NCBI GenBank assembly: GCA_964347265.1
Contig: CAYFXV010000001.1
Coordinates: 14,397-78,396, forward strand
DNA from: an uncultured archaeon
GTDB lineage: Archaea > Aenigmatarchaeota > Aenigmatarchaeia > Aenigmatarchaeales > Aenigmatarchaeaceae
DNA length: 64,000 nt
Direction: 5' to 3'
The translations under genes were made by a program, and so were the position numbers. Position 1 is the first letter of the stretch; every line of letters starts with the position of its first letter. Under the pieces are notes generated by a model that worked only from the letters and a program-made list of their open reading frames with translations, ran no database searches and was not told where the DNA came from. Below, one piece after another: positions 6,269-46,246 of this stretch.

Positions 6269-7440
6269 CATCGCTTTGTTTTTATTTTCAGGTTCACCAA
6301 CCAATGAGATTAAATAGATTTTCTATCTTTACTAAAGGTTCTCCTTATTTTGATGAAGAAAGAAACAAAGCGTATTTAAAAAAAGTTTCAAATAAATGTT
6401 ATTTACCAACTAACAAACTTCTTTTAGATCTAATAAATGAATATGAGAAAAAATTCAAAATTGCCTTTAGCTTAACTGGAGTTTTTGTAGAGCAATGTAA
6501 AAAATATGCACCTGAAGTTTTAGAATCTTTTAAAGAATTAACCAAGACTGGAAACGTTGAGTTTTTAAATGAAACTTATTATCATTCTTTAGCAGTCTTA
6601 TTTTCTGAAAAGGAATTTAAAGAACAAATAAAACTTCATAGGAAAATGATATTAGAATTGTTTAACCAAAAACCAAAAATTTTTAGAAATACTGAAGCAA
6701 TGTATTCAAACAGTATTGCCAAACTAATTGAAAAATTAGGATATAGAGGAATAATAACAGAAGGTCATGAAAGTATTCTAGGGTGGAGATCACCTAATTA
6801 CTTGTACTATCCAAATGGTTGTAAAAAAATTTCAGCCTTATTGAGGAACTATAAATTAAGTGATGATATTGGTTTTAGGTTTTCTGCTCGATGGTGGGAA
6901 GAATATCCACTGACTGCTGATAAATATTCGATATGGTTATCAAAATGTGAAGGTCATTGTATTAATGTATTCATTGATTATGAAACATTTGGAGAACATC
7001 AATGGGAAGATACAGGAATATTTAATTTCTTAAAATACTTACCATCTGAAATTTCTAAATATCCAAGTCTTGATTTTAAAACTCCATCTGAAATTATTAA
7101 ATCATATAAACCTGTTGGAGTCATAGATGTTCCACATACAATTTCTTGGGCAGATGTCCAAAGAGATCTTTCAGCCTGGCTTGAGAATGAAATGCAAAAA
7201 CTTGCTTTTGAACAAATGGCAAAACTTGAAGAACATGTTAAGAAAAACCCAGAATTGTTGCATACATGGAGATTACTTCAAACTTCTGATCATTTTTATT
7301 ATATGTGTACTAAGTGGTTTGCTGATGGTGATGTTCACAAATATTTTAATCCTTATAATTCTCCTTATGATGCATTTATTAACTTTATGAACATTTTACA
7401 AGACCTAAGAAGAAAGTTGGGTTTAAATGAAAGTAGATGA
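6265..7440 (+). CDS. GH57-family glycoside hydrolase (alpha-amylase, 4-alpha-glucanotransferase or branching-enzyme-like).
   Basis: 391 aa. N-terminal FYFQVHQPMR matches the GH57 region-I HQP signature. It overlaps the upstream GT gene by 4 nt, which suggests an operon. Confidence 0.5.
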   Translation: MTSLCFYFQVHQPMRLNRFSIFTKGSPYFDEERNKAYLKKVSNKCYLPTNKLLLDLINEYEKKFKIAFSLTGVFVEQCKKYAPEVLESFKELTKTGNVEFLNETYYHSLAVLFSEKEFKEQIKLHRKMILELFNQKPKIFRNTEAMYSNSIAKLIEKLGYRGIITEGHESILGWRSPNYLYYPNGCKKISALLRNYKLSDDIGFRFSARWWEEYPLTADKYSIWLSKCEGHCINVFIDYETFGEHQWEDTGIFNFLKYLPSEISKYPSLDFKTPSEIIKSYKPVGVIDVPHTISWADVQRDLSAWLENEMQKLAFEQMAKLEEHVKKNPELLHTWRLLQTSDHFYYMCTKWFADGDVHKYFNPYNSPYDAFINFMNILQDLRRKLGLNESR

Positions 7441-9373
7441 TCTAAAATGGGAATATCTACCAATAGAAAATCCTGATTGGGATTATGCTAGAAACCTCTT
7501 TACTGTTCTAAAAAGACCTCAAGCAACTTGGTCTCAATCTATTTTTTCTGTAAGACATAAAAACTTAATTGCACCTAACAGAGATTATAAATTTCAAGGA
7601 TTATATGTTTTTGTTAATAAGGAGTATTGGAAATTTTTAGATGCTATATTCTTTGGAATAAAAGAATTTCATATGGAACCTAAAAAAGTAATAATTTTTC
7701 CTTGGAAATCTGTTTATCAATATTTTGGAGATGGAATCGATGTTGATGTTTCTTATTATTTATCTAGAGATATGAGAGAAGGCATAACAGCAAAAATCAT
7801 ATTTGATATAAAGAACTCTTTTTTTAAAGAACTAATAATTAAACCTTTAGTTGATATTAGGAATATTTTTTCAGATTCAAAACCAGAAAAAATTAAAACT
7901 AAAGTTAATAACAACTCTTTGACTGCATCCTTTGGAAAAAATAAAATTTCTTTTTTTGTTAATGATAGTAGTATTTTAGCTGAAAAGGAGATTTTAAATT
8001 GGAAATATAAATTGGGAAGTGGATTTAGAGAAAATACTAGCAATGGTATAAGATTTGTTTCAGAATGGGCTAGGCCTGTATTCATTGGAGAAATTCACAA
8101 AAGATTATCTGGAGATGAAAAGATTTCTTTAATAATAAACTGTAATAGAAAAAATGATGATTTCGATGAAAATGAGGAAAAATTATATGTAAATCAAATA
8201 ACTAAGAAATTTAATTGTAAAAATGAATTGTTAGCAAGAATAATCTCATTGGATAGTTTTGGTATATTAGAAAAAAATATTTTAATACCAGAAGCCGGAG
8301 ATTTCTGGTTTAGACAAATATGGCTAAGGGATTTGTTAGAATCGTTAATTAATAATTTTCAAACTTTCATCAAATTAGATAACAAAAAAATAAATGAAAT
8401 AATAAAATGGATACTAAAACAACAAAATAGAAAAACTGGGAGATTCCCAAATTTCAAAAATAATTATAATTCTGTTGATACAAGTCTTTTATTCTTTATT
8501 TTAGCTGAAAAATACCTAAAACACTTCAATGATAAAACAATGGAAAAAAGAATTTTAGAAAGTTTTAATTTACTTTTTAAAAAATTTTCTGAAAATAAAA
8601 TAGAAAATAATGGGCCACCAGTAATTAAACATTATATGTTATACTCTATGCCATGGCATTCTTGGACAGACTCTAGAATTCCTTTCAGAGGAGATATGAT
8701 ATCTACAAGAATTCCACATGAATGGGTTAAAGAAGAGAATTTAGAAGAAATACTCAAACCATGTTTGTTACCTGAAATAAATGCAATGTTTATTAGAACT
8801 TTAAAAGTGGTGGAACTGTTAGGAAAAGATCTTGGAAATTTTTATAAAAAATCTTTAGAAAAATATAAAAAAATATTTCAAAATAATGATTTTCTATATT
8901 CTATAATTATTAACGATAAAAAAGATGCTACAGAAACTTCAATGGCATTGAATTCTGCTGTTTTGTTATATAATCATGTTTTTAATAAAAAAGATTTGGA
9001 AAAAATGTGGCCATCTGTTCAGAAATTATTAGTTAAAAGAAGTGGAAAATTGTTTGGTATTCTTTGTAGAAATATAAAAGATAGAATATATTACAACGAT
9101 TACCAATATCATGGAGCAGTTGTTTGGCCAAGAGACACTCCTTATCTCATTAGATACCTGAAAACAATTGGAAAAAATGATTTAGTAAAAGAAATTCTGG
9201 AAAGTAATTTAGAACATCAGATGAATGAATCTGGAATATTTTATTGTAATGAGTTATTTTCACTTCCTGAAGGAAAGAATCCATCCCCAACTAAAAGTGA
9301 TGGTAATCCTGTCCCAGTTAAGAACCCTATCCAATTATGGTCACATTTTTGTGATGATTATTTAAGAAGCTAA
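7427..9373 (+). CDS. Amylo-alpha-1,6-glucosidase / glycogen-debranching-enzyme-like six-hairpin glycosidase (GDE_C or GH15-like).
   Basis: 648 aa. It contains FWFRQIWLRDLLESL (a W.RD-type motif), and its size and operon context with glycogen enzymes fit. Confidence 0.45.
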   Translation: MKVDDLKWEYLPIENPDWDYARNLFTVLKRPQATWSQSIFSVRHKNLIAPNRDYKFQGLYVFVNKEYWKFLDAIFFGIKEFHMEPKKVIIFPWKSVYQYFGDGIDVDVSYYLSRDMREGITAKIIFDIKNSFFKELIIKPLVDIRNIFSDSKPEKIKTKVNNNSLTASFGKNKISFFVNDSSILAEKEILNWKYKLGSGFRENTSNGIRFVSEWARPVFIGEIHKRLSGDEKISLIINCNRKNDDFDENEEKLYVNQITKKFNCKNELLARIISLDSFGILEKNILIPEAGDFWFRQIWLRDLLESLINNFQTFIKLDNKKINEIIKWILKQQNRKTGRFPNFKNNYNSVDTSLLFFILAEKYLKHFNDKTMEKRILESFNLLFKKFSENKIENNGPPVIKHYMLYSMPWHSWTDSRIPFRGDMISTRIPHEWVKEENLEEILKPCLLPEINAMFIRTLKVVELLGKDLGNFYKKSLEKYKKIFQNNDFLYSIIINDKKDATETSMALNSAVLLYNHVFNKKDLEKMWPSVQKLLVKRSGKLFGILCRNIKDRIYYNDYQYHGAVVWPRDTPYLIRYLKTIGKNDLVKEILESNLEHQMNESGIFYCNELFSLPEGKNPSPTKSDGNPVPVKNPIQLWSHFCDDYLRS

Positions 9374-23993: not shown

Positions 23994-24836
23994 ATGTTAG
24001 AAGAATTCATAAATGAAAATTTCTTAATTCCATTATGTCATTATTATACTCCAGTTGGAACAATAAGTTATGGCTTAATTATGGTTTTAGCAGTTATAGG
24101 AACTTACAAACTTCTAAAATATTTAAAAATAAAAATAGATAAAAAATTCTTTATCGGACTTATAACTTTTATAGTATATGGCGGTTGGACAAGAGCTTTA
24201 AGAGATCATAAATTAGGTATTTATCAAAGTAATATTTTTTGTTCGCCACCTATTTACTTTTTTATATTTTTCATAGCTCTAGCTTCTTTATTACTAGGAA
24301 TTTCAATAGAAAAAATAACTAAGAAGAAGAAACGTAAAATTTCTTATGAAAAAATAATGTTTGTAATAGGTTTATGTTTTTTATTGTATAATGCAACTTT
24401 AACTAACATAAAAAACTTTTTTGCATTTTCCTCTATTTTATTATTGGTTGGTTTTTGGTCTTTAGTTTTTTTGGGTATACACAAAATAAAACCGAAATTA
24501 TTATCATTACAAAATGCTGGAATAATAGTTTCACATTTGTTAGATGCAAGCTCAACCTTCATAACACTTTCTTTCTTTGGTTATTGTGAACAACATATCT
24601 TACCAGGTGTTTTAACAGGAGCATATTGTGATGCAAAAAGCTTACCAAATTATTTAATTTTACCATTTAACCCGTGGGTAATGTTTCCATTAAAAATAAT
24701 TGTGGTTTGGATTGTTTTAGCATTAATTGATAGATCTAAAGAGGATATTTTCTTAAAAAGGTTTTTAAAAATCGTAATTTTGATATTAGGGCTAGCATTG
24801 GGCATAAGAGATTTTCTTACGGTTTCTATGCTCTAA
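23994..24836 (+). CDS. Polytopic membrane protein (hypothetical, DUF63-like).
   Basis: 280 aa with multiple TM helices and conserved Cys/His. Confidence 0.4.
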   Translation: MLEEFINENFLIPLCHYYTPVGTISYGLIMVLAVIGTYKLLKYLKIKIDKKFFIGLITFIVYGGWTRALRDHKLGIYQSNIFCSPPIYFFIFFIALASLLLGISIEKITKKKKRKISYEKIMFVIGLCFLLYNATLTNIKNFFAFSSILLLVGFWSLVFLGIHKIKPKLLSLQNAGIIVSHLLDASSTFITLSFFGYCEQHILPGVLTGAYCDAKSLPNYLILPFNPWVMFPLKIIVVWIVLALIDRSKEDIFLKRFLKIVILILGLALGIRDFLTVSML

Positions 24837-24874: not shown

Positions 24875-26116
24875 ATGATGTATCCTATAGATGTGGTATA
24901 TTTGGTATTCGTCTTCATAACATTGTATTTTTCTATATTATTTTTTCTATTATTTTTAAGAAACAAAAGATTAATTAAAAGAATACCTAAACTTACAAAA
25001 CATCCTTCTGTAAGCATAATTATACCAGCTTATAACGAAGAAAATGTCATAGGTAAAACAATTGAAAACTTGAAAAAGCTGATTTATCCGAAAAATAAAC
25101 TTGAAATAATAGTAGTGAATGATGGTTCTAGTGATAAAACTGGACAAATAGCAAGAAGTTTTAAGGGAGTAAAGGTCTTTGATAAAGTTAATCAAGGTAA
25201 AAAAGCATATGCACTTAATTTTGGATTAAAAAGAGCTAAAGGTGAAATAATAGGTTGTATAGATGCTGACTCTTTTCCACGATCAAATGCACTTTTAAAA
25301 TCAGTATCCTTTTTTAATGATCCAAAAGTAGGTGCTGTAACTACTTCTATTTTTGTAAAGGAACCAAAAAAATTGATCCAAAAACTTCAATATTTAGAAT
25401 ACATAATGATAGTTTGGTCTAGAAAATTACTTGAATTTTTAGATGGCATATATGTTACTCCAGGAGCAATGAGTTTGTATAGAAAAAGCGTTTTACAAGA
25501 AGTTGGTGGTTTTGATGAAAAGAATGTAACAGAAGATATAGAAATTGCTTGGAGAATACTTCGTAAAGGATATTTAATTAAGATGTCAACTCTTGCAAGA
25601 GTTTATACAAATGTTCCTTCATCATTTAAAAAATGGTGGAAACAAAGAATAAGATGGAATATAGGAGGTTTTCAAACATCAGTTAAACATATAGACACTA
25701 TTTTTAGATCCAGATTTAAAAGCTTAGGAATATTTGTTGTTCCATTTTTTATATTATCTTATCTTATTTCACTACTTGGTTTTGGAGTATTTGTATATGT
25801 TCTGGGCACAGCAGTCTATGGCTATTCTAATATTATTTTTAAATCATTTCTCTATAGTTCTAATCCTATTAAATATACAAACTTTATGGATTTTTTAATA
25901 CTTCCAAATGTTTTCACAATTTTTGGTTTAAGTATCTTTATTTTATCATTAGTTTGGATGTTCATAGGTTTGAGAGCTACAGGTATGAAAATAAAAGGAT
26001 TTAAAGGAATATATAAGATTTTAATTTACTTAAGTCTGTATATTACAATTTTCCCTATAGTTTTGATAGATTCTATATTTAAATTTGTGAGAGGTAAAGA
26101 TTATAGATGGCGATAA
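24875..26116 (+). CDS. Processive family-2 glycosyltransferase with NodC/HasA/cellulose-synthase-like architecture.
   Basis: 413 aa. N-terminal TM, GT-A domain (SIIIPAYNEE, VVNDGSSD, DADS) and the QRIRW motif (QxxRW of processive beta-glycan synthases), followed by C-terminal TM helices. Confidence 0.8.
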   Translation: MMYPIDVVYLVFVFITLYFSILFFLLFLRNKRLIKRIPKLTKHPSVSIIIPAYNEENVIGKTIENLKKLIYPKNKLEIIVVNDGSSDKTGQIARSFKGVKVFDKVNQGKKAYALNFGLKRAKGEIIGCIDADSFPRSNALLKSVSFFNDPKVGAVTTSIFVKEPKKLIQKLQYLEYIMIVWSRKLLEFLDGIYVTPGAMSLYRKSVLQEVGGFDEKNVTEDIEIAWRILRKGYLIKMSTLARVYTNVPSSFKKWWKQRIRWNIGGFQTSVKHIDTIFRSRFKSLGIFVVPFFILSYLISLLGFGVFVYVLGTAVYGYSNIIFKSFLYSSNPIKYTNFMDFLILPNVFTIFGLSIFILSLVWMFIGLRATGMKIKGFKGIYKILIYLSLYITIFPIVLIDSIFKFVRGKDYRWR

Positions 26117-26117
26117 A

Positions 26118-26771
26118 ATGCAAAGTGATATTTTAATAAAAACCACTTTTATAACAGTAGTTGTTTTTGTATTAGGTATACTTGTTGGTATCTGGTTAGA
26201 CAATGCAAGACTTGAAGATATAAAAGAAAGATTAGCTTTTATGGATATTGAATGGAACGACGCAAGATTACAAAGTGTATTATATCAAAATTTTATAAAC
26301 AGTACAGAGTCTTGTGAAAATGCTATTAATTCAAATTTAGATTTTAATGAGAAGATCTATAAAGAAGGTATAGAAATTGAAAGACGTGAAAATGTAAATA
26401 AATTTACTCCAGAAATAATGTCTGAAAAAAGAAGATATGCCTTATTGCAATTACAGTTTTGGTTAAACAGCATAAACTTGAAAGAATCATGTAAAGCTAA
26501 TTATAGTTCCATTGTATATTTTTACTCATTCTTTGATGAAAATGCAAAAATTAATCAAAAAATTCAGAGTACTATCTTGTCAGACTTGAAAGAAGAATGT
26601 GGAAATCAATTAATTCTAATACCACTTCCTTTTGATTTAAATATCTCCACAATAGAATTCATAAAATCAAATTACAAAATTAATTCTACTCCGTCTATTT
26701 TAATAAATGAAAGAACTGTTTTAGAAGGCATACAAAATAAAGAAAAAATTTTAGAATATATGAGCTGTTAA
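26118..26771 (+). CDS. Membrane-anchored protein translationally coupled to the GT2 synthase.
   Basis: 217 aa with an N-terminal TM. Its start is 2 nt after the GT2 stop. Unknown family. Confidence 0.45.
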   Translation: MQSDILIKTTFITVVVFVLGILVGIWLDNARLEDIKERLAFMDIEWNDARLQSVLYQNFINSTESCENAINSNLDFNEKIYKEGIEIERRENVNKFTPEIMSEKRRYALLQLQFWLNSINLKESCKANYSSIVYFYSFFDENAKINQKIQSTILSDLKEECGNQLILIPLPFDLNISTIEFIKSNYKINSTPSILINERTVLEGIQNKEKILEYMSC

Positions 26772-27379
26772 GTCATTAAAACTAAAAGCATTTTATCAAC
26801 TGCTAAATCTAAATCAGTATACTTTCTATCGATTTCAGAAAAGTCTCTACCTTGTAAAATTATAAGATTATTATTAACTATTACAGACGTTTGGTTAGCA
26901 TAAGAAGGACCTAACAATAGTATTACAGGTTCTATTGGAGTTGGAATTAATTCATCGGTTGAGTTTATAGGTAATGACTTAAAACATCTTACCTCTTCAT
27001 CTTCAAAAAATAACATACAAGAACTACCGTCTACATCTTTAAAACTTCCTGTTTGACCTTTATAATAGTGTCTGTAAACTATTCCTAATTTATTTGTTGT
27101 TTCAAAGCTTGAGGCAACATAAAAAGCATTTTCAGTTTCATTGGGAATGAAAGCTATGTAAATTTTATAAACTTCTGGATTTAGTAAAACATCTTTAATA
27201 GCATCTTCATTAGGATAAACTGGTGTTTTATTGGCCTCAAACAAATTTGCTCTAAAATGTCTTATATCACCTTCATAATACAAAGAATAAGGATCTTTAA
27301 AGGTTCCTAAATTATTTAATAGGAAAACAAAAGCAATAACAATTATTGCTATTATTACTATAATATAATTTTTTTCCAT
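26768..27379 (-). CDS. Secreted/membrane-anchored hypothetical protein.
   Basis: 203 aa with an N-terminal hydrophobic anchor. Confidence 0.4.
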   Translation of the reverse strand: MEKNYIIVIIAIIVIAFVFLLNNLGTFKDPYSLYYEGDIRHFRANLFEANKTPVYPNEDAIKDVLLNPEVYKIYIAFIPNETENAFYVASSFETTNKLGIVYRHYYKGQTGSFKDVDGSSCMLFFEDEEVRCFKSLPINSTDELIPTPIEPVILLLGPSYANQTSVIVNNNLIILQGRDFSEIDRKYTDLDLAVDKMLLVLMT

Positions 27380-27394
27380 ATACTAACCTCTGAT

Positions 27395-27462
27395 TCTCGA
27401 GAAATAAAAAGAAAAAGAAAAAAGGGGTAGCTGATTTCTTCAAACTATTCTATTAAGAATAG
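27395..27462 (-). terminator. Putative terminator of the S-layer-like gene: a hairpin overlapping the stop codon followed by T-tracts.
   Basis: Inverted repeat CTATTCT-atta-AGAATAG at 27445..27462 spans the stop. On the transcribed strand it is followed by CCCCTTTTTCTTTTTCTTTTT. Confidence 0.4.
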
Positions 27463-30239
27463 CTTGGAGATGCTACTGTTCCCGTAACAGTTACTTCAGC
27501 ACCTGCTTTTTGTGTGTCTGTTGCTCCTGGGAATCCAGTTTGGACAATTCTAGCTGCTAAGTCTGTATCTCCTGCTTCCCAACCGGCTATCAATAGAGCT
27601 GTCTTACCTGTTGCGAATTTGTCTGCAACAAGTTTTATCAAACCTGCATTCTCAGGTATTCCTGATGCAGCTCCACATGTATAGTCAGTATGACCCATGA
27701 CTTCAGCTGCTAGCTTGTTAATACAAGGTCCACCAACTATGACTAAATCATAGTTTGATTTGTCTGAGCTTGTTACTTCGGTATCAAGTTTAACAACATC
27801 TGATGTAATTGGTAATACAACATCTGTTGTTATTACGCCTCCAACTCCACCACTTGTTATTACACCTGTTGGAGTCAACACATAAACATTTCCATATGTG
27901 AACACATCTGGATAGCTTATTGTTGCTGAACCTCCAAGGTTTGAAGTCAAGTGATCTGATAGAGTACCGTAAGTTGTCATACCCTTGTATTGTGTTGATG
28001 TTCCTAAGAGCGGAACGTCTGCATAAGCGCTGTCATCTGAATAAAGTGAGGTAGCTATGCTTACTTTGTTGTTTGTACTATCCCATGATACTGGTAGATA
28101 CAACCAATTATGTGTTTGTCCGCCTTGTTGTGCTTCTTCAACTAAGATAAAACCTGTACCATCATACCAAGCACTTGTACTTGTTCCTAGTTTAACTGTG
28201 TAGTTCATAGCAGCACTAGTTCTTCCAACTCTTACTACATAATCAATGTGGTTCTTTGCAAATGTTCCACTTCCATAAGCTCCGTCTTCAACTGGTTCTC
28301 CAATTGCTGTTTCATTAGTCCAAGTTCCTGCTGTAGGACCATATGTAGCAACTGTTGTTGTATTGTCAGCATTTCTAACAAGTCTTATACCTGCAAATCC
28401 TAGTTGTGGATAAATCCAGGTTCCTGCGGTCATTGCACCTGAAGAATAGTTTGTATAGAAATACAAACCACCTTGACCTGTTGTTATTAACTTTGGTGCA
28501 AGGAAAGAGTATTCTCTACCAAGAGGTCCTGGTGTAGTAAAATCTGTGTATGCTGTTCCTGCAATATATCCATCTCCATTTAGGTCAACATTGATAGTTT
28601 TAGATGTATTGCTTATAAGGTAAACTCTATAAATGTTTCCATCAACTATCAAATTTGCTATGGCTCCATTTGAAGTTTGGTTACCTGTTGCTGTAATTGA
28701 ATTTCCTGACTCATCTGTAAATGTAAATTCACCAGTTGCTGCTGTATAAGCTGTAAATACCATTGTGTGGGAGAATCCTCCTTTCTGTATCACGAAAAAG
28801 TCTTGATCAACTGCGCTAATGTTTGCTCCCTCATCAAATACAACATCTCTCCAATCGTTTTCAGTGCCTGATGCTGTTACGGGTGCTGATGCCCATCTCC
28901 ATGTTACTCCGTCTGATGAATAGACTGAGAACATTTGTTCTTCAGCATCTGCAGCATTCTTGTATTTTAAGAACATGTTGTATCCAGAAGGATTGAATGT
29001 TATTGATTGTCTGTTTGCTGCATCTGTAAAATCTGGAATAATACTGTTGAATTTTATGTCAAAGGTTGATGCAAAGGAATCTGCCACTTTATCTCCTGCA
29101 GATAACCACTTATCTAAAGTTGGAGTATAGGTTAAAGAGAATACGGACCAACCACCTGATACACTTGAAGTCATTCCTGATACTAATTCAGATACGACTG
29201 ATGTACCTTTTGTTACTGTTCCTGCAGAACTTACTTTAACTTTGTCTGCGCCTATTGCTAATGTTGCATAATCTGCTGCTCCTGTCTTACCTTGGAAGAC
29301 TTTTATTGCAGCAATTTGTGTTCCATCAGACAAAGTTTTGGTTTCTCCTGCCTTTAATGTAAATGATTCACCATTTACATCCCCAATGGCAGAATAATAT
29401 GTTGATGTTCCTATAGTTTGTGCAGCAACTCCTGTCAAAGTAACTGTATAGTCTTTTCCTTCAGATGTTATTGTTTGTGGTGCTCCTGTTTCTACAGTAA
29501 CTAAATTCTTACCTCCAAGTAAGGTCATAGTTGAGATTGTATCAGTTGAACTACCATATGTGGCATCTGATATAACGAAATCTTTTCCTAAAATACTTAT
29601 AGTTGTACCTTGAATTACAGCCTGCAATAGTGTATTACTGGTAACACCTGATAAAGAGACTGGTGTTGAAAATGTTAGTTTGTATGTATAAAGTGGATAA
29701 GATGCTGGAACTTTAAAGGAAATTCTTGGCGTATTTTCAGTTGTAGGTCTTTCAAATTTTATTTGTGCGCCATTGCTACCTAAATCAGTCTCACCCAATA
29801 AATACAAATACTGTTTATATTGGTAAGCTCCACCAGATGCTGATGAATAAGTTTTGGTTCCTAACAAAGATGGTATATCTGAAGTTGTTATAATTCCCTT
29901 AACATTTTGCGGGTTTGTATAAGGTGTTAAAAATATACCAGATGTTTCTATTTTTGCTCCACCTGTAACACTTTCTCCTGCAATTGTTGTTGTTACATCT
30001 GTGGTTGTCTTAGCATTTGCTGCCATATTAACAGCTACATCAACAGCACCTGCAACATCAGCTGGTGCGGCTCTTGCCCCGATTACAAACAGTGGAAAAC
30101 TAACTGTTGAATCTGTTACTGTTATCATATCTGATATTTTTCCTAATTCTGTTACAGTAGATGCTAACACTGGACTCATTAATGACATTCCTGTCATAAG
30201 TGCTGAACCTGCTATCGCAGCCAATTTTTTAAATTGCAT
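27453..30239 (-). CDS. Large secreted Thr/Ser/Gly-rich surface protein, an S-layer protein candidate.
   Basis: 928 aa with signal peptide MQFKKLAAIAGSALMTGMSLMSPVLAS and low-complexity T/S/G-rich beta-type sequence. It has a strong SD (GGAGG) and a GC-rich leader. The internal + ORF 30001..30264 is spurious. Confidence 0.5.
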   Translation of the reverse strand: MQFKKLAAIAGSALMTGMSLMSPVLASTVTELGKISDMITVTDSTVSFPLFVIGARAAPADVAGAVDVAVNMAANAKTTTDVTTTIAGESVTGGAKIETSGIFLTPYTNPQNVKGIITTSDIPSLLGTKTYSSASGGAYQYKQYLYLLGETDLGSNGAQIKFERPTTENTPRISFKVPASYPLYTYKLTFSTPVSLSGVTSNTLLQAVIQGTTISILGKDFVISDATYGSSTDTISTMTLLGGKNLVTVETGAPQTITSEGKDYTVTLTGVAAQTIGTSTYYSAIGDVNGESFTLKAGETKTLSDGTQIAAIKVFQGKTGAADYATLAIGADKVKVSSAGTVTKGTSVVSELVSGMTSSVSGGWSVFSLTYTPTLDKWLSAGDKVADSFASTFDIKFNSIIPDFTDAANRQSITFNPSGYNMFLKYKNAADAEEQMFSVYSSDGVTWRWASAPVTASGTENDWRDVVFDEGANISAVDQDFFVIQKGGFSHTMVFTAYTAATGEFTFTDESGNSITATGNQTSNGAIANLIVDGNIYRVYLISNTSKTINVDLNGDGYIAGTAYTDFTTPGPLGREYSFLAPKLITTGQGGLYFYTNYSSGAMTAGTWIYPQLGFAGIRLVRNADNTTTVATYGPTAGTWTNETAIGEPVEDGAYGSGTFAKNHIDYVVRVGRTSAAMNYTVKLGTSTSAWYDGTGFILVEEAQQGGQTHNWLYLPVSWDSTNNKVSIATSLYSDDSAYADVPLLGTSTQYKGMTTYGTLSDHLTSNLGGSATISYPDVFTYGNVYVLTPTGVITSGGVGGVITTDVVLPITSDVVKLDTEVTSSDKSNYDLVIVGGPCINKLAAEVMGHTDYTCGAASGIPENAGLIKLVADKFATGKTALLIAGWEAGDTDLAARIVQTGFPGATDTQKAGAEVTVTGTVASPSYS

Positions 30240-30269
30240 TTTTTATTCCTCCTCATTTAATTAAAGTTT

Positions 30270-30317
30270 GCGCGGTGTATGCGCTTTTTCTGGCGCCAAA
30301 AATGCGCTTGCGCGCCA
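30270..30317 (-). promoter_or_regulatory. GC-rich structured leader or operator upstream of the S-layer-like gene.
   Basis: GCGCGGTGTATGCGC and GGCGCCAAAAATGCGCTTGCGCGCC palindromic elements sit about 30-80 nt upstream of the start. They are strongly GC-rich against the ~27% GC background. Confidence 0.45.
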
Positions 30318-30491
30318 AAAAGATTAATACCTCTATTTATTTCTGACGCCATTTTGATTAAGAAATATTGTATAAAGCTAGGATATATAAACTTCTAGAA
30401 ACTGTTTACTGAACTGTTTATCATTGTTTACTTATATATTTTGAAATTAAAATAAGAATTTTTATATCTTCTAATTGTTTCTAAAGGCTTT

Positions 30492-31397
30492 TTATGCCTT
30501 TTTTCCAAATTTCTTCTCTATATAAACCTTGTTTTTCCTACCAATCCTTTCAAGTTTTATAAGACCTCTTTCTTTCAAACTTTTAAGAACTTTTGAAACT
30601 TTTGCTTTAGAATATCCACTATCTTTAACAATTATCTTTTGATTAACGCCATTACCATGTTTCATAACTGTATTAAAAATTATTTTTTCATCTTTTTTTA
30701 ACACAGGTAATATTAATTTTACAGTTTTATTTTTCCAATAAAATTGATAAAAAACTATGACGCCTGCAAATATTATTATGATTGTTATTGTAAAAAATTC
30801 AATCGGAAATTCAGATATAATAACATCTCCTATTTTTTCAAAAGCTACAAAAACATCAATTCTATCTCCTTTTTTAAAATCATTCATTTGCCAGTTAATA
30901 ATTGTTCTTCTGCCATCTGATCCTATTAAAGCATTTTCTGGACTATAAGAATTTTCTACAGGCTCTCTTAAACCAGTTCCTTCTGGAAGCTTAACTAAAA
31001 TAGGAATAATTTCAGTATCACCTCTAAATTTAAAAGAATCTGTAAACAAAAAATAATTATTTCTCTTATTAACTTTTTGATTTGAATTATAAGTTATAAT
31101 GACGTCTGTTCTTTCTGAAGCTTTCATAGTACAAACTATATTTGTTTCTAACATTCCAGGTTGGATTTTACAATCTGCAACAGAATCAACTTTAATGTTA
31201 TCAGGAGAACCTAGAGGTGTGATAAAACTTTGGTCTTGATGATTTACAAATATTAAAGTTAATTTATATTCAACTGTATTATTTTCAAAAATTTCTGCTG
31301 TAACTCCGTATTGATATAATTCTTGCGAAAAACAAGGAACTGAAAATAAAATAAAGAATATTAAAATTAGGATTTTTTTCATTTTATCACTCTTCAC
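30492..31397 (-). CDS. Single-pass membrane protein with an extracytoplasmic N-terminal domain and a cytoplasmic C-terminal winged-helix DNA-binding domain.
   Basis: 301 aa. It has a signal peptide (MKKILILIFFILFSVPCFSQ), a ~190-aa ectodomain, a TM (FFTITIIIIFAGVIVFYQFYW), then FNTVMKHGNGVNQKIIVKDSGYSKAKVSKVLKSLKERGLIKLERIGRKNKVYI (wHTH). Confidence 0.5.
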   Translation of the reverse strand: MKSDKMKKILILIFFILFSVPCFSQELYQYGVTAEIFENNTVEYKLTLIFVNHQDQSFITPLGSPDNIKVDSVADCKIQPGMLETNIVCTMKASERTDVIITYNSNQKVNKRNNYFLFTDSFKFRGDTEIIPILVKLPEGTGLREPVENSYSPENALIGSDGRRTIINWQMNDFKKGDRIDVFVAFEKIGDVIISEFPIEFFTITIIIIFAGVIVFYQFYWKNKTVKLILPVLKKDEKIIFNTVMKHGNGVNQKIIVKDSGYSKAKVSKVLKSLKERGLIKLERIGRKNKVYIEKKFGKKA

Positions 31398-31824
31398 CTC
31401 TCATGAAAACTATTCCACCAGCACCAGCTGCTGCAAGTCTATGCATCATATTTGAAATTGAATTCAAAATTGATTGAGCTTCACCAACATCTAAATTGAA
31501 TTTTTCTGGTTCTAATATTTCTATAGCAGATGGTCCATATTCAATAGCAATCTGTGCAAGGTTATCAAACTTTTTAGATATTAAATTAACTTCACATGTT
31601 ACAGAATATCCAACCTCAACATTTTGAATTGGTGTTTCAACTCTCTTAGTTTCCCCAAAACTTTTTTTATAAATTTTTACTCTATTGTCTCTGTCAAGTT
31701 TGTTAACCAAAGACTCTAGTGCATCTTTTGCTACGTTTTCATTTATTGCTAAAGCTTCGAACATAACCCAAGATTTAAACCATCCTTCTCTAACTTTTTC
31801 GTTTGCTTCTTCCTCGCTTATCAT
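31387..31824 (-). CDS. Hypothetical protein.
   Basis: 145-aa ORF. It overlaps the upstream gene by 11 nt. Family not recognised. Confidence 0.4.
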   Translation of the reverse strand: MISEEEANEKVREGWFKSWVMFEALAINENVAKDALESLVNKLDRDNRVKIYKKSFGETKRVETPIQNVEVGYSVTCEVNLISKKFDNLAQIAIEYGPSAIEILEPEKFNLDVGEAQSILNSISNMMHRLAAAGAGGIVFMRGEE

Positions 31825-31863
31825 ATAAGAATTAATTTCTTTCTTAAAGCTTTAAATTTGTTT

Positions 31864-32895
31864 CTAAAAGTGTTCTGGCACCCATCTTTTTCCAAAAATA
31901 GGTATTTCCTCTCCACATTTAGGACATTTAAAATCTTTTTTCAATGAGAATTTTTTAACACCTAAAATTGTTCTTTCAATAACAAGGTTTCCACAATTAT
32001 GACAATAAGTATTTTCCAACTTATGATTATGAACATTTCCTAAATAAACATATTTTAGTCCTTCTTTTTTTGCTATTTCATAAGCTTTTTCCATTGTTTT
32101 GATAGGTGTTCTAGGCAAATCTGTCAATTTATGGGTTGGAAAAAATTGAATTAAGTGAAACGGTGTTTTGTCTCCTAAGTTATCAAATATCCATTTACAA
32201 AGTTTTTTCACATCTTCCATATTGTCCCCAACTTTAGGAACTATTAAATCTGTTATTTCAATATAAATTTTGTTTTTCTTGTAAGCTAACAAAGCATCAA
32301 AGATTGGTTCTACTTTAGGAACGCTTGAAAATTCATTGTAAAACTTTGGATTTGCAGAACCTTTTAAATCAACAACAGCTGCGTCCAAATATTTTGATAT
32401 TTCTTTTATTGCTTCTGGAGAAGTATAACCATTTGTAACAAACATGTTATAAAATCCATTTTTTCTAGCTATTTTTGCAGTATCATAAGAAAATTCATAA
32501 AATATTGTTGGCTCTGTATAAGTATAAGAAAAGCCTTGAACACCAAATTTCTTTGCTAAATCAATTAATTGCTCAGGAGTATGATCTTGTCCAATAACAT
32601 TTGTCCATTCTTGTGATATTCCATAATTACAACAAAACTTACATCTAAAATTACATCCAACAGTAGATATAGATACGGTTCTAGAACCTGGAGCAAACAT
32701 GTATAATGGTTTTTTTTCAATAGGATCTACTGCTACTGAACAGAGTTTTCCATAAACAAGAGAATATAATTTGTCTTTAATGTTTTTCCTAACTCTACAA
32801 AATCCTACTTGATTTTCTGCTATAATACAATTTCTAGCACATAAACCACATTTAATAGCGTTTTTAATTTGTTTATAGAACATAGCTTCTTTCAT
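31864..32895 (-). CDS. Radical SAM enzyme of the COG1180 type (PflA/AmrS-like activating enzyme).
   Basis: 343 aa with CGLCARNC at the N-terminus and the radical SAM motif CNFRCKFC (CX3CX2C). Confidence 0.65.
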   Translation of the reverse strand: MKEAMFYKQIKNAIKCGLCARNCIIAENQVGFCRVRKNIKDKLYSLVYGKLCSVAVDPIEKKPLYMFAPGSRTVSISTVGCNFRCKFCCNYGISQEWTNVIGQDHTPEQLIDLAKKFGVQGFSYTYTEPTIFYEFSYDTAKIARKNGFYNMFVTNGYTSPEAIKEISKYLDAAVVDLKGSANPKFYNEFSSVPKVEPIFDALLAYKKNKIYIEITDLIVPKVGDNMEDVKKLCKWIFDNLGDKTPFHLIQFFPTHKLTDLPRTPIKTMEKAYEIAKKEGLKYVYLGNVHNHKLENTYCHNCGNLVIERTILGVKKFSLKKDFKCPKCGEEIPIFGKRWVPEHF

Positions 32896-43921: not shown

Positions 43922-46246
43922 TTATTGCGGAGGTGCAATTGCCAATTGTAAGCTTCGTGATTGTGTATTCAAATATCTGTAGTCAGTCAATCCTACTATC
44001 AAACTAGTTTTACTATCAACATCTGCAGGTAAAGCATCGGGTTTTATGAAAAAGGAAACTCTCTTGAATTCTTGAGATTCTATATCTCTACCATGGGTGC
44101 ATGTTATTACATAAAATCCAGAGGGGTTTGTAACTTCGCAACTATCAAAACTGTAATATAAGTCCGAATTAGATAAATTATCAATCAAATTATCAGGAAC
44201 TTTAATTACGAATTTCGCTTGTTTTATTATACCCGTACCTTCATTAAGAAGAGAAGCTATAACAATGTTCGTTTCATCGCTTCTTAATGGCTGTTTCCTA
44301 GAAATTAATGTTGCCTTAACAGGACCTCCAGTATAATAAGATGTCAATTCTTTTATTACTATTTGTTTGTTTTTAAGCAAATCCATGTATAAGCCCGTAT
44401 CCATAACATCAATTGGTATGGATACATTAACTTTATAATTATAAGTCAAATTAGCATTTACTTTAAATAATGTGGTAGCATAAGTATAGGTTGTACCTGG
44501 AACACAAGGAGCTGGATTACCATCTACATCGAGACATTGTCCTCCCAAATCAAGTGTTCCATTAGTCCAAGAATCTTCTTTATAAATAAATGAAGCTACT
44601 TCTATCTCACTTGGATATGTAACATCACTCCAAGTACAAGTGGATCCTGAACCACTACCACGACCACATTCTATTTCAGTAATAGATCCAACATCAGATA
44701 TTTTTGCTGTAACAGGATCTGTCCAAGTTGCATAAATCTCTAATGTTGAAGCTCCGAAAACAGAAGGATCTGATTGATATTCTCCTTTGTTAGTAAGTTC
44801 TATAAAACCTATTGTTGGTTCACTTGGTTCCAAAGTTCCAGGTATAGATGTATAAATATCAAAGCCTGTAAATTCGAGGGATAGTATTGTTCCTGTTGGT
44901 ATGCTTTTTGCTACTTGTATTTTTTGTTGTTGCAATAAATAGTATTGTTGAGGATTAGTCAATAACAACCAACTATCTGATAATCCGCTTTGGGCTTGTG
45001 CTAGAAGAACATTTAATGGGCTCAAATATGTTTCACCAAAACCTTGAACTTGGGGCCACCACACTCCGAATATTGCACTACCAACAAAACCTGTGTATGT
45101 AGTTGAAAATATGAACAATGATATCAAAATTACTATAACTCCAACAGCTGGTCTTGCTTCTGGTCCAGCTGTTGCACCTGAAAACAAGGAAAAAAACCAA
45201 ACAACTGAAAACAATACCACATTCACATCAGAAATATCAAAAGCAAAAGGTCCGAAAGGTTGAAAGAACGTAAAGAGAGCCCCAATCATAACAAGTGAAA
45301 AAATTAATGATTCTGCAGCTCTACCTTTTTTTGAAAGACTTAAATTTATTGTTATTACACCGCCTTCTTCTTCAATATGAGTAGGAATTGCTATAAAAAA
45401 TGCTGCAGACATCAAACCTAATGGCCAACTTAAAGGACCAGCAAAAGTTGAAGAAATTTGAAATGCTAAATAAATACCAAGAACTAATCTTACCCATGCT
45501 AATATAAGCTTATATGGTTGACTAGTCTTGTATCGGAATGGTAAGTTGAAATAAAATATAAATCCAAAAACTAAAGCTAGCATACGGTTCAAAGTAAAAA
45601 AGTCCAATAGTATGAAAAAGAATGCAACTAATTTGGCGAAAGCTTTTACTGTCAAAAAGCCCATAGCTCCACCACTTATCTGTTCCCCTCGTCCGACTTC
45701 ACTGACAATACTACGTTCTGAAGGAAAAACAGAATGAATTGCAATAAAAACAAACCCTATTGCTAAATATGTTCTAGGAGGTATACCAAAGAATGGTGGA
45801 ATAATTATAGAACATGCTGCGGCTATTATATAAATGAGAATTTGAAAAAATTTAAGTTGTGTTCCTTTTCCTGCTATTTCTGCGATAGTTCTAAAGCTAG
45901 GTTTTTTTACTTTAGAAGATGTTGGTCTTCCTTTTGTATAAGCTATGTCCTCTCCTTCCTGAGTCTTTGTTAATGCATGACCTCTCATTTTTTTAAAAAA
46001 ACTAACTAATCCAGTATCTCCCGCTGCTTCTGCTTGTTTTTGCCTTTCCATTGCATAACTTATGTTTGCACCACTATAGGCTTTTCTAACTGCTGTATTA
46101 AAATCTACTCCTTTTGCAGTATACTCATCTATTTTTTGTAACATATACAAATATCTTTGTTTTTTCGCATCTGAAAGATCATCTCTAGAAGCTTGTTTAA
46201 AAATATAATTATATAATTTTTTGTAATCTGTTTTCTTTGTTGCCAT
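43922..46246 (-). CDS. Large polytopic membrane protein: ~130-aa cytoplasmic N-terminus, 8-10 TM helices and a ~380-aa extracytoplasmic C-terminal domain.
   Basis: 774 aa. The hydrophobicity pattern is readable from the sequence, and no known family motif was recognised. The + ORF 43745..43951 overlaps this gene's 3' end and is spurious. Confidence 0.45.
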   Translation of the reverse strand: MATKKTDYKKLYNYIFKQASRDDLSDAKKQRYLYMLQKIDEYTAKGVDFNTAVRKAYSGANISYAMERQKQAEAAGDTGLVSFFKKMRGHALTKTQEGEDIAYTKGRPTSSKVKKPSFRTIAEIAGKGTQLKFFQILIYIIAAACSIIIPPFFGIPPRTYLAIGFVFIAIHSVFPSERSIVSEVGRGEQISGGAMGFLTVKAFAKLVAFFFILLDFFTLNRMLALVFGFIFYFNLPFRYKTSQPYKLILAWVRLVLGIYLAFQISSTFAGPLSWPLGLMSAAFFIAIPTHIEEEGGVITINLSLSKKGRAAESLIFSLVMIGALFTFFQPFGPFAFDISDVNVVLFSVVWFFSLFSGATAGPEARPAVGVIVILISLFIFSTTYTGFVGSAIFGVWWPQVQGFGETYLSPLNVLLAQAQSGLSDSWLLLTNPQQYYLLQQQKIQVAKSIPTGTILSLEFTGFDIYTSIPGTLEPSEPTIGFIELTNKGEYQSDPSVFGASTLEIYATWTDPVTAKISDVGSITEIECGRGSGSGSTCTWSDVTYPSEIEVASFIYKEDSWTNGTLDLGGQCLDVDGNPAPCVPGTTYTYATTLFKVNANLTYNYKVNVSIPIDVMDTGLYMDLLKNKQIVIKELTSYYTGGPVKATLISRKQPLRSDETNIVIASLLNEGTGIIKQAKFVIKVPDNLIDNLSNSDLYYSFDSCEVTNPSGFYVITCTHGRDIESQEFKRVSFFIKPDALPADVDSKTSLIVGLTDYRYLNTQSRSLQLAIAPPQ

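Follow-up and report, generated by a model that had tools for sequence, protein, structure and literature searches.

Transmembrane transcription regulators (TTRs), such as ToxR, TcpP, CadC and the ArnR/ArnR1 pair, carry a DNA-binding domain and at least one transmembrane (TM) segment in one polypeptide. ToxR and CadC consist of an N-terminal winged helix-turn-helix domain (wHTH) of the OmpR type, a linker of 50-65 aa and a C-terminal periplasmic sensor, and ArnR has an N-terminal helix-turn-helix followed by C-terminal TM segments. A census of archaeal genomes counted an average of four TM-containing DNA-binding proteins per genome and found them in 367 of the 404 species, the single-pass form being the commonest form of TTR at 56% (PMC10269533). 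A family of membrane-bound regulators adjoins pilin genes in haloarchaea (PMC4858521), and the ArnR/ArnR1 pair of Sulfolobus has been the subject of experiments (PMC6396743). Here, we analysed a gene for a membrane-tethered wHTH protein that lies next to an S-layer gene on a 64-kb stretch of DNA (the window, ~29% GC) from a DPANN archaeon of the Aenigmarchaeota. A preliminary description of this DNA had called proteins of this kind rare and uncharacterised in archaea, which is contradicted by the census (PMC10269533) and by the work on ArnR/ArnR1 (PMC6396743). The reading that we favour, with roughly even confidence, is that the protein would act locally as a TTR of the adjacent S-layer gene.

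The window protein resembles the TTR class in uniting the two parts in one chain, in having an extracytoplasmic part that is presumed to receive the input and in that the proposed target adjoins the regulator gene. Its predicted TM helix and predicted cytoplasmic DNA-binding domain place it in the class as defined in PMC10269533. A likeness to ToxR and CadC had been proposed; it stands at the level of functional class but not at that of anatomy, because the domains are ordered and oriented differently and the wHTH is of another type. Here, signal peptide, ectodomain, TM helix and C-terminal wHTH follow one another in this order (N-out/C-in), with a wHTH of the DUF7343/MarR/TrmB type on a tether of ~13 aa. 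The OmpR/PhoB-type wHTH of ToxR and CadC (Trans_reg_C) was not among the Pfam matches of the protein at E<1, and no homology to ToxR, TcpP, CadC or ArnR/ArnR1 was detected with Pfam and NCBIfam.

Anatomy of the tethered wHTH protein

The open reading frame (ORF) of 301 aa that the preliminary description placed at 30492..31397 was found in the window, on the minus strand, and is real. Translation more likely begins at the ATG at 31382 than at the GTG at 31397, which would lengthen the protein by 5 aa. The ATG is favoured because the resulting 296-aa product is 100% identical to the NCBI protein GTN40_00670 from a metagenome-assembled genome (MAG) of Candidatus Aenigmarchaeota, because the homologues all start at the equivalent MKK, and because a GAGGTGA run resembling a Shine-Dalgarno (SD) sequence lies 12 nt 5' of the ATG and just 3 nt 5' of the GTG. 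The gene is thus taken to span 30492..31382 (minus strand), and residues are numbered from this ATG.

Hydrophobicity analysis revealed exactly two hydrophobic segments (Kyte-Doolittle >1.6), at aa 1-23 and aa 192-216. The first has the appearance of a signal peptide (aa 1-20, 31323..31382, minus strand; Kyte-Doolittle 2.0-2.15), with MKK followed by ILILIFFILFSV and then PCFS, and the n-, h- and c-region features, the only basis for this prediction, suggest cleavage between this S and the following Q. A hydrophobic N-terminal segment was present in 94% of 136 family representatives, which span 23-66% identity, and the signal-type segment described earlier is retained. A lipoprotein with a lipobox was considered and dropped, since C17 varies among homologues. 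The second segment is the TM helix (30735..30809, minus strand). Its Kyte-Doolittle value peaks at 2.44 at aa 194-212, it is modelled as a helix at aa 194-216 by AlphaFold2 (AF2), and a corresponding segment was found in 136/136 representatives, in agreement with the single TM helix that had been claimed. Between the two segments lies the ectodomain (aa 21-190, 30813..31322, minus strand). On the other side of the TM helix, hydrophobicity, alignment and AF2 delimit a short basic juxtamembrane linker (aa 217-229, KNKTVKLILPVLK, 30696..30734, minus strand), which leads into the wHTH (aa 230-288, 30519..30695, minus strand).

Charge, cysteines and N-x-S/T sequons were compared on the two sides of the membrane. 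The 84-aa tail of the window protein has a net charge of +18 (24 K/R vs 6 D/E) and the ectodomain one of -6, and the means over the 136 representatives were +10.9 and -5.7, respectively. The inner flank of the TM segment was the more positive side in 93% of the representatives. Sequons were ~3x denser in the ectodomain than in the tail, and the median number of cysteines was 2 in the ectodomain and 0 in the tail. C71, C84 and the N34 sequon (N-x-T) were invariant in 44 close homologues, and the ectodomain is taken to bear a disulfide as well as sequons. This asymmetry fits an oxidising, glycosylating exterior and a cytoplasmic tail, and by the positive-inside rule, too, the wHTH is placed on the cytoplasmic side, as had been proposed. 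The outside domain is likewise upheld, at a length of ~170 aa and not the ~190 aa given before. The AF2 model (predicted local distance difference test score, pLDDT, 84.8) consists of an all-beta domain at aa 22-183, the TM helix and a canonical wHTH with helices at 230-242, 248-255 and 259-271 and a beta hairpin at 275-288. We take it as settled that the protein is a type I (N-out, C-in) single-pass membrane protein.

The tail domain matched Pfam DUF7343 (PF24034), a family without assigned function, with 50.2 bits (gathering threshold 27.6) over 59/62 profile positions, and all 136 representatives matched it as well. Together with the AF2 model, this bears out the assignment of the C-terminal segment as a wHTH. 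TrmB (24.2, cutoff 25.6) and MarR_2 (22.0, cutoff 27) scored just under their Pfam gathering thresholds, many relatives matched MarR_2 or TrmB at E<0.01, and a search of the protein against NCBIfam gave sub-threshold wHTH matches only. By these profile comparisons the protein is assigned to DUF7343, with a kinship to MarR/TrmB at the superfamily level only. In structure searches, the wHTH superposed on those of MarR and ArsR proteins, DNA complexes included, and the great majority of its structural matches were DNA-binding proteins of these two groups. It differs from the soluble dimers of MarR in that the N- and C-terminal dimerisation helices are missing, and from TrmB in that there is no C-terminal sugar-binding domain: the cytoplasmic part comprises ~80 aa of linker and bare wHTH.

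Sequence conservation is concentrated in this domain. Pairwise identity was 47-54% in the wHTH vs 23% in the ectodomain, so the wHTH is twice as conserved, and a conserved wHTH with a diverging ectodomain would be the usual output/input pattern of regulators. The recognition helix SKAKVSKVL (S-K-A-K-V-S-K/R in the family) and the wing GRxNK (G-R-x-N-K) are nearly invariant. E232 is invariant in 136/136 representatives, and in close homologues P226 and K229 of the linker and D231, E232 and K233 are invariant, as part of a strongly conserved juxtamembrane motif, L-P-V/I-L-K-x-D-E-K. A profile search of 1.84 billion representative proteins returned 689 representatives at E<1e-10, and among the 150 best of these 689 matches most were full-length proteins of ~300 aa. 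Literature searches found no mention of DUF7343 or MJ0538, and a search for COG2512 gave irrelevant matches only.

The ectodomain has a conserved surface motif, LPEG..P..GSDGRR..W. Its best structural match by two methods was Ost1/ribophorin I, a subunit of the eukaryotic oligosaccharyltransferase (OST), at an identity of only 7-13%. Like Ost1, the window protein has a signal peptide, a lumenal or extracellular beta domain, one TM helix and a cytosolic C-terminal domain, so both the fold of the lumenal domain and the type I topology are found here. It differs in having a single beta domain of ~170 aa, where the matched PDB chains of yeast Ost1 and human RPN1 have 432 and 560 aa, in carrying a wHTH where RPN1 has a ribosome-docking domain, and in lacking a profile-level sequence match. 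The cytosolic domain of RPN1 docks the ribosome. Ribophorin_I (PF04597) was absent from the Pfam matches of the window protein at E<1 and was not among the 25 of 49 Pfam families listed for the 136 relatives, all of which were wHTH families. A profile search of the ectodomain against PDB sequences returned no OST subunit and nothing relevant, and a literature search on ribophorin and winged helix in archaea found nothing. The same beta fold also occurs in the N-domains of M1 aminopeptidases, in ITIH1 and in 4g2a. Since there is no sequence signal, the fold is generic and the domain is much smaller, we treat the likeness to Ost1 as a resemblance in modelled fold only.

The spacer between the wHTH gene and the S-layer gene

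The wHTH gene is followed on the minus strand by the proposed target, a gene for an S-layer protein of 928 aa (27453..30239, Pfam S_layer_C) with a signal peptide and no C-terminal TM segment; no hydrophobic segment of this protein passed the threshold. On the other side of the wHTH gene lies a gene of the MJ0538 family. We compared 41 loci, drawn from metagenomes and from the species representatives of GTDB. The order MJ0538-like gene, wHTH gene, S-layer gene was found in ~30/41 loci, down to 30% identity of the membrane protein, and the tie to surface genes is stronger than the preliminary description had claimed. A full-length distant homologue in a Nanohaloarchaeota MAG (L037) retains the MJ0538-like gene, and both neighbours are missing from full-length homologues in Acidifodinimicrobium/Parvarchaeota MAGs (Micrarchaeota-type).

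The 250-bp spacer in front of the S-layer gene is conserved in its DNA above the expectation for protein identities of 30-60%. An alignment of the spacers of 22 loci revealed three groups of invariant columns, namely a palindrome core AAC.GT, a TATA box and GC-rich boxes downstream. In the window, the candidate operator is TAAACAGTTTC (30398..30408), which is one mismatch away from GAAAC-N-GTTTC and starts 17 nt before the TATA box TTTATATA (30384..30391, minus strand). The position and sequence of this TATA box are conserved, which suggests that it belongs to the promoter of the S-layer gene. Wherever a locus contains the two motifs, the distance from the start of the palindrome to the TATA box downstream is exactly 17 nt. 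The perfect 11-mer palindrome occurred 21 times in the 472 kb of fetched loci, vs 0.54 expected from base composition, and nearly all copies were at the S-layer spacer position. Further upstream are boxes of the form (T/G)AAACA(A/G)T, which in the window are TAGAAACAAT at 30474-30483, TAAACAAT at 30423-30430 and TAAACAGTTC at 30411-30420 (minus strand). Two boxes of the GAAACAAT type, ~21 and 73 nt 5' of the palindrome, are conserved in most of the 22 loci, and the window has three tandem copies of TAAACA(A/G)T at a spacing of 10-12 bp.

The perfect palindromes away from the S-layer spacer were of two kinds. L023 and L029 have theirs in the promoter region of the MJ0538-like gene. In L039-L041 and L081, labelled Acidifodinimicrobium/Parvarchaeota, the palindrome lies ~335 nt 3' of a homologue that is 25-27% identical to the window protein and is followed by no S-layer gene; it is kept also in a 61%-identical relative of these homologues, likewise with no S-layer gene after it. 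At three of these loci (L040 7170-7290, L039 5038-5140, L081 5285-5385), the palindrome GAAACAGTTTC lies at the end of an Hjc-like gene after the homologue and is followed by a GGTTTCA half-site, a TTTTAAATA box and a hairpin with a 9-bp stem and a T-run. For this region, a small RNA comes into question, as does a bidirectional terminator that faces sec61-beta. In the window itself, TAGAAACAAATTTAAAG 5' of the MJ0538-like gene was considered as an operator and set aside, as it may be just a B recognition element (BRE) plus TATA box.

We also scanned metagenomes for the exact pattern of palindrome plus TATA box. The scan found 39 places, 13 of them directly after a homologue of the wHTH gene; for 11 of the 13 an S-layer gene was detected downstream as well, and for two the stored sequence stops at the match or just past it. 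Those inspected among the remaining 26 look unrelated, such as sequences with LAGLIDADG/GIY-YIG-type ORFs that are probably organellar, and the 26 are taken as chance matches, their number being about what chance would give. Within the window, palindromes with one mismatch were not significantly enriched (4 vs 2.65 expected), and a 15-mer with up to three mismatches occurred 17 times vs 9 expected, only the spacer site being exact. The 64-kb window contains no second strong palindrome site and no paralogue of the wHTH gene, which fits a dedicated local regulator.

Downstream of the TATA box, whose position was used to place the transcription start site, the S-layer mRNA is predicted to begin with a 5' leader of ~120 nt (30240..30362, minus strand). 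The leader contains the GC boxes GGCGTC (30345-30350), GGCGCGCAAGCGC (30304-30316), TTTGGCGCCA (30291-30300) and GCGCATACACCGCGC (30270-30284), followed by the SD sequence GAGGAGG (30248-30254), all on the minus strand. The GC boxes are nearly invariant in a genome of 29% GC, and they include a perfect palindrome of 12 bp (consensus TTTGGCGCCAAA). An RNA structure is one possible role for the boxes, and a second site of protein binding is another. RNAalifold proposed two helices in the leader, with covariation that was not significant (54/500 shuffles reached the score and 91/500 the paired fraction), and an Rfam search of the spacer (30150-30550) gave only chance-level matches, with E values of at least 0.85. 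The boxes are too conserved to separate a role at the DNA level from one at the RNA level. A leader peptide was rejected: the window has a 31-codon ORF over the GC boxes, and the frame is interrupted by stops in L001.

Proposed local regulation of the S-layer gene

Collectively, the topology, the DNA-binding type of the tail and the conserved DNA in front of the neighbouring gene suggest the following course of events. Two tethered wHTHs, joined via their TM helices and ectodomains, would bind the palindrome and the nearby GAAACA boxes. This binding, immediately 5' of BRE and TATA box, would tune transcription of the S-layer gene, which codes for the most abundant envelope protein; the position just upstream of BRE/TATA is the usual one for activators in archaea. 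The ectodomain would report on the condition of the envelope, for instance on S-layer subunits that are unassembled or unglycosylated; judging from its surface motif and its location, its input may be a component of the envelope, such as these subunits. The target promoter begins ~100 bp past the stop codon of the regulator gene. If the regulator is inserted into and the S-layer protein secreted through the membrane co-translationally, their shared locus may be held at the membrane, and a 13-aa tether would then be workable. In some relatives, the palindrome lies 5' of the operon of the MJ0538-like gene and the regulator, which suggests autoregulation there.

Several observations weigh against local control of the S-layer gene by this protein. 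The half-sites are ~7 bp apart from centre to centre, where dimers of MarR or TrmB typically have ~10 bp, and the copy of the palindrome in the window itself has one mismatch. Near the most divergent homologues (L031, L033-L038), which have the same recognition helix, the palindrome was not detected. The tether of 13 aa is much shorter than the linker of ToxR or CadC. The ectodomain has as its best structural match a subunit of a glycosylation complex and no known sensor. The invariant leader palindrome TTTGGCGCCAAA is a second candidate element, and another transcription factor could bind the spacer palindrome, as adjacency alone is no proof.

A wider reading can be offered tentatively, as a possibility. 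In it, the locus would be an Aenigmarchaeota-wide feedback circuit of the cell coat, with relatives elsewhere in DPANN. The Ost1/ribophorin-like ectodomain would monitor the supply or glycosylation of S-layer subunits in the pseudo-periplasm, and the almost invariant wHTH on its 13-aa tether would drive an S-layer promoter that co-translational secretion from that locus holds at the membrane.

The envelope gene cluster and alternative roles

The MJ0538-family gene (PF27325; 31387..31824, minus strand) encodes a cytoplasmic protein of 145 aa with a confident model of a ferredoxin-like fold, for which only generic structural neighbours were found (ACT/RAM/S6/HPPK-like). Since its stop lies 4 nt 5' of the ATG of the wHTH gene, the two genes are probably co-transcribed or translationally coupled. 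A radical SAM gene of the AmmeMemoRadiSam type (31864..32895, minus strand; TIGR04337, 310.8 bits vs a cutoff of 220) is next, and in other loci too it is often directly upstream on the same strand. On the far side of the S-layer gene are h203 (26768-27379, minus strand) and h217 (26118-26771, plus strand), which encode N-terminally anchored ecto-proteins. Neither has a Pfam or NCBIfam match, both always accompany the S-layer gene, and each has several N-x-S/T sequons; they are candidates for a part in S-layer anchoring or assembly. Two further members of the conserved cluster follow, a gene for a family 2 glycosyltransferase (GT2; 24875..26116, plus strand) and one for a DUF63-family membrane protein (23994-24836, plus strand), the latter bearing the label AliA_AliB where homologous loci were annotated with a newer Pfam. 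The S-layer and GT2 genes had been placed nearby in the preliminary description, correctly so.

Some features of the window stand apart from these comparisons. The region of the S-layer gene (27453-30239) has a GC content of 0.37 vs ~0.29 elsewhere. The window contains 14 copies of the octamer TAGAAACA vs 5.8 expected (none of 100 shuffles reached 14). Five of the 14 copies are on the minus strand within 2.4 kb (29487-31866) around the wHTH gene, at the stop region of the radical SAM gene, in the spacer and at coding positions of the wHTH and S-layer genes. Two long ORFs have no Pfam match at E<1e-4, one of 648 aa at 7427-9373 (plus strand) and one of 774 aa at 43922-46246 (minus strand).

The composition of the cluster bears on a different role for the protein. 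It might be a factor of envelope biogenesis or anchoring, its ectodomain acting outside in the glycosylation, assembly or anchoring of the S-layer and its wHTH serving as a docking module or as a tether to the nucleoid. The Ost1-like fold and an S-layer protein that has neither a TM segment nor a membrane anchor of its own keep this explanation alive, and the conserved envelope cluster with the GT2 gene, the AliA_AliB-family gene and the two anchored ecto-proteins, as well as the very short tether, speak for it. We nevertheless consider it unlikely. There is no kinship to Ost1 at the sequence level, the fold of the ectodomain is a generic one, its ~170 aa are far from the length of Ost1 or RPN1, and no AglB gene was found among the long ORFs of the window. 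Moreover, the most conserved part of the protein is the wHTH and not the ectodomain, and an anchoring role would leave the co-conserved DNA palindrome unexplained.

A second alternative keeps the regulator and frees it from the membrane. An envelope signal would trigger cleavage in or near the TM helix or the linker, and the released wHTH would act as a soluble transcription factor. A tether of 13 aa is short for access to DNA, the juxtamembrane motif is strongly conserved, and bacteria are known to control membrane-bound regulators by regulated intramembrane proteolysis. Against this, no protease gene is conserved at the locus, and in the model the conserved motif opens helix 1 of the wHTH and is not an obvious cleavage site. 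The gene also lies tightly in cis to the target promoter, as suits a regulator that acts from the membrane. We regard proteolytic release as improbable. That the wHTH instead binds the leader and holds the S-layer mRNA at the membrane for co-translational secretion, as its ~120 nt with nearly invariant GC boxes and possible helices might suggest, is very improbable, given that the covariation of the helices is not significant, that the leader has no Rfam match, that the GC boxes are missing from the Micrarchaeota-type homologues, which retain recognition helix and palindrome, and that the structural matches of the wHTH are overwhelmingly DNA-binding.

Local regulation of the S-layer gene from the membrane thus remains the reading that we favour. 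What is new here is the phylum-wide pairing of the regulator with an S-layer gene, the positioned palindrome and the Ost1-like fold. The architecture is distinct among TTRs, with its type I topology, C-terminal wHTH, very short tether and a promoter ~100 bp past the stop codon, and it bears on how membrane-bound regulators find their DNA. The soluble tail of ~80 aa and ~110 bp of DNA with the palindrome make a concrete and cheap test system, and the two are conserved throughout a phylum whose members are uncultured. The Ost1-like fold is a lead on the origin of accessory OST subunits, so far as a structural resemblance only. If the cell-coat circuit is true, the protein would count, at least by its fold, as a prokaryotic relative of Ost1, an OST subunit, that is joined to a DNA-binding domain. 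Regulators are very few in DPANN archaea, and these archaea depend on contact with the surface of their hosts; next to nothing is known of how archaea control the expression of the S-layer, in most cases the protein that they make most of. The cell-coat circuit, if true, would be the first case in which both the regulator and the operator of an S-layer gene have been identified in an archaeon.

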